Source: Escherichia coli
GTDB lineage: Bacteria > Pseudomonadota > Gammaproteobacteria > Enterobacterales > Enterobacteriaceae
Assembly (NCBI RefSeq): GCF_003334305.1
Contig: NZ_QOWS01000057.1
DNA length: 1,849 nucleotides
Reading direction: 5' to 3' (one strand)
Below are positions 1,557-1,710 of this stretch, one piece after another. The notes beneath the pieces were generated by a model. It saw nothing but the letters and a program-made list of their open reading frames with translations. It had not been told where the DNA came from and did no database searches. Every line of letters begins with the position of its first letter. The stretch's first letter is position 1. Made by a program: the position numbers and the translations under genes.

Positions 1557-1620
1557 ATGGTAGGGCAATATTCAAAGACAGTATAGGTAACTATTTGTAT
1601 GGCCATGTAAGGTAAAAGAA

Positions 1621-1626
1621 AAGGAA
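1621..1626 (+). promoter_or_regulatory. Shine-Dalgarno (AAGGAA) belonging to the orphan rhs 5' remnant
   Basis: AAGGAA lies 6 nt upstream of the ATG at 1633. Together with the ATG it forms an rhs-type translation initiation region. Confidence 0.45.
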
Positions 1627-1632
1627 TAAACC

Positions 1633-1710
1633 ATGAGCGGAAAACCGGCGGCGCGGCAGGGCGACATGACCCGCAGGGAAAGATCATCAGAAGTTCACTT
1701 TTTGTACTAA
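1633..1710 (+). pseudogene. Orphan 5' remnant of an rhs gene: first 13 codons (MSGKPAARQGDMT, start of the PAAR-containing N-terminus), then frame divergence and a stop
   Basis: The translation is MSGKPAARQGDMT|RRERSSEVHFLY*. The first 13 residues match the recalled canonical N-terminus of E. coli Rhs proteins (MSGKPAARQGDMTQYGG...). The segment 1635-1680 is a strongly GC-rich island within AT-rich flanks, and homology is lost at about 1670-1680. Confidence 0.6.

Follow-up and report, generated by a model that had tools for sequence, protein, structure and literature searches.

The segment that lies between the dsORF-h1 gene and the neighbouring insertion sequence (IS) in an 1849-nt stretch of Escherichia coli DNA (hereafter the window) is very probably a non-functional relic of a second, tandem rhs gene, cut by the insertion of an ISAs1-family element and deprived later of its body, most likely by recombination. 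An Rhs element combines a GC-rich core with an AT-rich extension, downstream ORFs and H-repeats; descriptions of Rhs elements and H-repeats, and of the part they play as substrates for recombination, go back to the 1990s. The feature (hereafter the stub) is an ordinary IS scar in this long-known type of element, and implies no new element or mechanism. Its significance beyond annotation is small: the stub accounts for an unannotated gap of 260 bp between dsORF-h1 and an ISAs1 pseudogene, documents former tandem rhs genes at the locus, and is a handy marker for tracing the reshuffling of Rhs modules between the pptA and yafV loci.

Many complete E. coli chromosomes match the window at 100% identity. 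In strain L65 (L001), the window sits inside an Rhs element flanked by yncH on one side and pptA on the other, the order being vgrG, a frameshifted rhs, dsORF-e4, an IS1 fragment, an ISAs1 copy, two small ORFs, a full-length ‘RHS element core protein’, the ‘RHS element protein dsORF-h1’, 260 bp without annotation, an ISAs1-family transposase pseudogene and pptA. The segment under study falls within these 260 bp (table 1). The upstream rhs is matched by NCBIfam RHS_core (model positions 1099–1261) and by TIGR03696, and in Pfam by RHS, together with a weak Peptidase_M91 match (E = 0.01) on the C-terminal toxin (CT). No Pfam or NCBIfam family matched dsORF-h1, which is presumed from its position to be the immunity gene, and whose N-terminus is hydrophobic and signal-like (MMKYLMVLLSLFSGSVLG). 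The HEFAH motif, the weak M91 match and this signal-like N-terminus hint at a metallopeptidase toxin that acts in the periplasm and is paired with a secreted immunity protein.

Table 1. Coordinates of the features along the window (nt 1–1849).
Feature	Coordinates	Strand	Remarks
Upstream full-length rhs gene (RhsH type), 3' end	1..1095	+	RefSeq ‘RHS element core protein’, L001 8833-13095
Upstream rhs, conserved core end	about 124-612	+	ends in DPIGL/PxxxxDPxGL region
Upstream rhs, AT-rich C-terminal toxin (CT)	about 613-1092	+	HEFAH motif
Upstream rhs, stop codon	1093-1095	+	
dsORF-h1, presumed cognate immunity gene, 149 aa	1107..1556	+	RefSeq ‘RHS element protein dsORF-h1’, WP_000978828.1
76-nt AT-rich intergenic leader of the downstream tandem rhs	1557..1632	+	Shine-Dalgarno AAGGA at 1621-1625
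rhs relic: ATG, codons 1-13 and first two bases of codon 14 (MSGKPAARQGDMT-R)	1633..1673	+	alignment to three rhs starts
ISAs1-family element (Rhs-associated H-repeat), left end	1674..1849	+	ends from copies with different flanks; RefSeq ‘ISAs1 family transposase’
IS left inverted repeat	from 1674	+	CAGGGAAAGATCATC
IS left arm, untranslated, 143 nt, then transposase ATG (MELKKLMEHIS...)	ATG at 1817	+	window stops within transposase gene
Chimeric 25-codon ORF	1633..1710	+	ORF list; stop TAA 1708-1710

A megablast search with positions 1557–1710 against 5,426 complete E. coli genomes divided the segment into two parts of different origin. Positions 1557–1679 match the start of the annotated ‘RHS element core protein’ together with its upstream spacer (97.6% identity, E = 7e-52), and positions 1674–1710 match the left ends of ISAs1-family elements in thousands of genomes, K-12 ydcC among them. 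Window 1557–1673 shares 98–100% nucleotide identity with the 76-nt leader and first 14 codons (MSGKPAARQGDMTR) of full-length rhs genes. Over longer distances, window 1046–1678 is 99.05% identical to the dsORF-h1, spacer and rhs start of strain G1/2 (L006), and window 1540–1675 differs by two mismatches from strain PCP07014 (L002). The rhs start with a proper Shine-Dalgarno sequence announced by the original prediction is thus confirmed at the nucleotide level, AAGGA (1621–1625) being placed 7 nt ahead of the ATG at 1633. The rhs-derived coding part amounts to 14 codons rather than the 13 first proposed, because the rhs subfamily of the relic starts MSGKPAARQGDMTRKGLDIVQGS in direct alignment, R14 (CGC) included; the window tracks rhs through ...ATGACCCGCA and departs after it. 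Likewise, 1557–1632 does retain an rhs leader, as had been suspected, since a near-identical spacer separates the immunity gene from the full-length rhs in PCP07014 (one base different) and in G1/2 (99% identity). The GC-rich island that had been described is real over about 1633–1680 only (57–72% GC), the leader at 1557–1632 being AT-rich (32–40%).

In an intact homologue, NCBIfam RHS_core (NF041261) aligns from residue 1, and the relic corresponds at the nucleotide level to the 5' end of such a gene. A complete rhs gene encodes a core of some 1,250 residues, which contains YD repeats and has a PxxxxDPxGL end, and after it a CT toxin; here, only 14 codons precede the IS, which makes the stub a relic rather than a gene. 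A chance peptide match, or a share in some unrelated small gene, can be dismissed, as the similarity extends over 117–123 nt, including the 76-nt non-coding spacer, at the E-value given above.

The exact point at which rhs gives way to the IS lies at 1673/1674 and was obtained by comparing IS copies. Those in K-12, PCP07014 and L65 have unrelated left flanks and all become alignable from CAGGGAAAGATCA, that is, from window base 1674; the rhs relic therefore ends at 1673. In every comparison, similarity to the tandem array ends at 1678 and similarity to the IS begins at 1673/1674, bases 1674–1675 (CA) fitting rhs as well as the IS. The complete IS measures 1291 bp and ends in ...CGTAATCTTGCCCTG, an imperfect inverted repeat of its left end (right inverted repeat ...ATCTTGCCCTG; left repeat CAGGGAAAGATCATC versus the reverse complement of the right repeat, CAGGGCAAGATTACG, in several copies). 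Terminal inverted repeats of 14–22 bp whose first letters are CAGGG characterize the ISAs1 family (PMC11946415). The element at 1674–1849 possesses a terminal repeat of this kind, RefSeq/PGAP annotates its single transposase ORF as ‘ISAs1 family transposase’, and relatives of this copy with 95–98% identity are annotated as ISEc1/ISEc5, two ISAs1-family elements that share with it the CAGGG terminal repeats, the length of 1291 bp and the single transposase ORF. What the original prediction took for a diverging rhs frame entering AT-rich sequence is consequently something else: the AT-rich stretch past 1673 is the left end of the IS. The ORF at 1633–1710, which translates as MSGKPAARQGDMTRRERSSEVHFLY*, is made of 14 rhs codons and 11 codons running through the IS inverted repeat (RERSSEVHFLY*), and is an accidental product of the rhs/IS junction.

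The copy carried by the window genome departs from the ISAs1 family in its nonsense codon, its missing right end and, for the reconstructed insertion, a flank duplication of 2 bp versus 10 bp. Its transposase is interrupted by a TAA at codon 18, and its last approximately 390 bp and right inverted repeat are missing, owing to a 3' truncation into the pptA upstream region; this deletion also took about 45 bp of K-12-type pptA upstream sequence (L001 13817–14640). The IS beside the stub is thus dead, a fossil. The H-repeat has been listed as an ISAs1-family IS whose transposition has not been observed (PMC3032704).

Both the interrupted and the uninterrupted arrangement were found among the 5,426 complete genomes. 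For the uninterrupted form (immunity gene, 76-nt spacer, rhs), a query placed across the breakpoint was covered over at least 80% in 91 genomes, in which a full-length rhs gene lies without interruption directly downstream of a dsORF-h1-type immunity gene. The downstream rhs is intact in strain F9792 (L007), as a 4194-nt ORF at the yncH–pptA locus, and is frameshifted in PCP07014 and G1/2, both at the yafV locus. The stub–IS form was covered over at least 80% in 986 genomes, or roughly 18% of the complete E. coli genomes; two reference strains, 55989 and HS, are among them. On the far side of the IS, the window genome has pptA; the continuation of the interrupted gene that was sought there was retrieved elsewhere, with a chimeric query joining the IS right end to rhs from codon 11 onward. 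In nine genomes at the same chromosomal locus, e.g. strain D2, the IS right end abuts rhs from codon 14, and the junction in D2 reads ...CGTAATCTTGCCCTG|CGCAAGGGACTGGATATTGTGCAGGG, i.e. the IS right end followed by rhs from this codon. Beyond it stand a 4.2-kb rhs (rhsE-ydcD module), ydcD, yncO, a yncI-type H-repeat remnant, a truncated H-repeat and pptA. The left flank in the window ends ...ATGACCCG and the right flank in D2 begins CGCAAGG...; joined, they overlap by 2 bp (CG) and give back the rhs sequence in its intact form, ATGACCCGCAAGG. These matching left and right junctions indicate a single IS insertion into the start of rhs. Accordingly, the idea of a scar in a second, tandem rhs cut by the adjacent IS is upheld by the 91 uninterrupted genomes, by a break located at the IS end and by the reciprocal junction in nine genomes.

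Target-site duplications, which the original prediction had suggested looking for, are a weaker point of this history. ISAs1-family insertions are reported to generate direct repeats of 10 bp (PMC11946415), and the window and D2 flanks overlap by 2 bp only (...ACCCG / CGCAAGG), which speaks against a single insertion. Another IS copy, located in PCP07014 inside the end of an orphan rhs core (YYNPGQG|RFI), shows a 0-bp duplication. Moreover, an arrangement with the stub and the rest of rhs on either side of one IS copy was absent among the matches listed for the reconstructed 1658-nt ancestral query in the 5,426 genomes. All 40 listed matches with 100% coverage consist of two to three separate pieces over 2.2–2.8 kb, and in the two that were inspected the IS stands ahead of a distinct tandem array that is itself intact. 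The ancestral insertion state is therefore reconstructed, not observed. As a separate observation, both of these H-repeat target sites (window 1669–1680; L004 9066–9083; L002 12823–12850 and 14126–14145) end in an (A)GGGAC-like sequence, which resembles the IS terminus CAGGGA.

The history that best accounts for these arrangements begins with a second rhs gene that once stood in tandem after the rhsH-toxin/dsORF-h1 pair. As the sequence itself shows, an H-repeat (IS_a) inserted into codon 14 of this gene, its left inverted repeat starting at window base 1674; the single-insertion ancestor would read window 1557–1673, the full 1291-bp IS and CGCAAGGGACTGG. The putative ancestral order would be dsORF-h1 – stub::IS_a::rhsE – ydcD – yncI – IS_c (truncated) – pptA. 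Recombination between IS_a and IS_c, which shares the orientation of IS_a and lies at the right-hand end of the locus, is the most likely route by which the body of the gene was lost and the stub and IS came to lie beside pptA, and recombination between an upstream H-repeat (IS_b) and IS_a would have produced the D2 arrangement. The pptA-adjacent H-repeat of D2 has a 3' truncation junction identical to that of the IS in the window genome, and its left flank is the yncI remnant, not the stub; the truncated copy was therefore already resident at pptA. A comparable loss is that of a T3SS region in Aeromonas salmonicida by homologous recombination between IS copies (PMC3661141). The mechanism proposed for the window locus is the same, with copies in the same orientation excising the DNA between them, and, unlike the A. 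salmonicida case, it is deduced from comparative structure only.

The IS copies themselves are mosaic. Those of L65 and of strain Ec-042-T20-MAC (L009) are identical over IS nt 1–388 and then diverge at 15 sites, and the differences between the IS of the window genome and the truncated copy of D2 fall mostly in the first approximately 400 nt. Such mosaicism is what a model of recombination between IS copies leads one to expect. From nt 389 onward, the copy of the window genome differs from both comparison copies at the same sites, and because of these private differences the crossover cannot be placed by segment-wise mismatch counts. Separately, nt 150–450 of the stub-linked H-repeat (window 1823–1849; L001 13823–14123) are unusually divergent from other E. 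coli copies, with 12–18 mismatches per 150 nt over nt 150–300. Being identical up to nt 388 to the stub-linked copy of the yafV locus, this version therefore looks like a ‘stub-linked allele’, possibly usable as a lineage marker.

Two other explanations of the stub deserve consideration. The rhs start could have been fused to an IS already located further downstream by an illegitimate deletion, through CA/GGGA microhomology and with no insertion into rhs. The resemblance of rhs at the break (CGCAAGGGAC) to the IS terminus (CAGGGAAAG), along with the absence of an 8–10-bp target duplication, would be in keeping with such an event. However, the break coincides with the exact first base of the inverted repeat, and the nine genomes with the complementary junction show rhs resuming at the same codon after the exact last base of the right inverted repeat, a reciprocity that a one-sided deletion would not give; we thus regard this scenario as very improbable. 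The plain deletion that had been offered as an alternative is not required to explain the break itself, although the remainder of the gene did disappear by deletion or recombination.

Equally improbable in our view is that the stub was kept for a function, whether as a small peptide, as a translated leader coupling transcription of the rhs operon to the IS, or as a 119-nt homology arm for recapturing rhs. The Shine-Dalgarno sequence and the ATG are intact, a terminator scan found no intrinsic terminator between dsORF-h1 and the stub, and the junction, 100% conserved in about 1,000 genomes and borne on a module present at two loci, would by itself be compatible with selection. However, the dead IS that flanks the stub is equally conserved, and the identity of the stub therefore reflects recent common descent rather than constraint. 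The downstream transposase is also a pseudogene, and 11 of the 25 codons are read-through of the inverted repeat. Neither RNA structure nor RNA family was found: the fold of 1557–1680 is no better than that of shuffled sequences (z = +1.17), and Rfam gave no match at E ≤ 1. A promoter, which had been thought possible in 1557–1632, did not appear there as a sigma-70-like site in a promoter scan, and RefSeq places no feature under the stub in any of the nine listed genomes with a full-length match. Read-through may yield transcripts of the stub, and translation of these is conceivable; the leftover Shine-Dalgarno sequence and ATG would then give rise, from read-through of the upstream rhs operon, to at most an accidental 25-residue peptide. 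The PAAR motif noted in the first codons exists as a literal P-A-A-R tetrapeptide and not as a domain: when the N-terminal 250 aa of the intact F9792 homologue were compared with Pfam, DUF6531 was the only match and no PAAR domain (PF05488) appeared even at E ≤ 10, and 14 residues could not form a domain in any case. Nothing suggests a role for the stub, and we assign it no function.

Returning to the relic left by IS insertion and recombination, the stub–IS junction occurs at two loci, pptA and yafV. Strains L65 and 55989 carry it at pptA, and Ec-042-T20-MAC at the T6SS/yafV locus; E. coli HS apparently has its stub at yafV too, as its coordinates and missing pptA flank suggest. In an evenly spaced sample of the matches, stub-bearing genomes were divided into roughly seven rows of the pptA type versus five of the yafV type. 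Positions 10065–14589 of L65 and 3509–8033 of Ec-042-T20-MAC are 99.5% identical over 4525 nt, the window (1–1849) included, and this shared 4.5-kb module contains the 3' part of the rhsH core, the CT, dsORF-h1, the stub and the IS up to its truncation point. In Ec-042-T20-MAC, the IS continues into a degenerate remnant of a right end, one that strains without the stub carry natively at their yafV locus. The presence of a 99.5% identical module at two loci suggests exchange between them, in which the rhs core and the H-repeat would act as homology arms. A more general reading is conceivable, to which we give less than even credence: the H-repeat might provide E. coli Rhs loci with a common homology arm on the right, the module having moved between loci with the rhs core as left arm and the stub as a passive marker. 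If so, the stub would mark a general route by which toxin/immunity modules are shuffled between T6SS-linked Rhs loci.

Several known systems help to situate the stub. The RhsE element of K-12 (rhsE pseudogene – ydcD – yncI H-repeat remnant – ydcC H-repeat – pptA) occupies the same yncH...pptA locus as the window, and both combine a truncated rhs, a dsORF of the immunity type and, at the right edge by pptA, copies of the ISAs1/H-repeat. The two are truncated in opposite ways, as RhsE retains the 3' part of rhs without the 5' part whereas only the 5' 14 codons are left of the downstream gene in the window; in D2, the rhsE-ydcD module starts exactly at the end of the window's stub. No match to window 1557–1673 was detected in K-12 by megablast. 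The rhsGH subfamily, ‘C-terminal tips’, pseudogenes and relics have already been described (PMC2935791; PMC3032704). Orphan rhs ‘C-terminal tips’ (Jackson et al. 2009, PMC2935791; Archer et al. 2011, PMC3032704) are, like the stub, dissociated fragments found downstream of a complete rhs/immunity pair, within an Rhs locus and often near H-repeats. These tips are 3' pieces that provide a usable toxin/immunity cassette and core homology for displacement (PMC2935791; PMC3032704). In contrast, the stub lacks the 3' core and CT/immunity of a tip: it is a 5' piece of 41–43 coding bases, without a toxin, made by an IS insertion and ending where the IS begins at 1674. A 5' relic is a less common kind of rhs fragment, and this one is fully explained by IS insertion followed by recombination.

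Two minor observations concern other H-repeat copies. A solitary left inverted repeat (CAGGGAAAGATCA) is found 162–175 nt upstream of several of them, the positions being 7618 and 7780 in L004, 13786 and 13948 in L005, and 14283 and 14458 in L006; in L001 (6536/6549), the CAGGGAAAGATCA 13-mer is duplicated in tandem. These solitary repeats could be remnants of nested or abortive insertions, or belong to a longer variant of the element. Finally, in XL1-Blue (L003 4469–5677), an IS4-like ISVsa5 (IS10-type) splits the yncI H-repeat remnant upstream of ydcC, an insertion unrelated to the stub.
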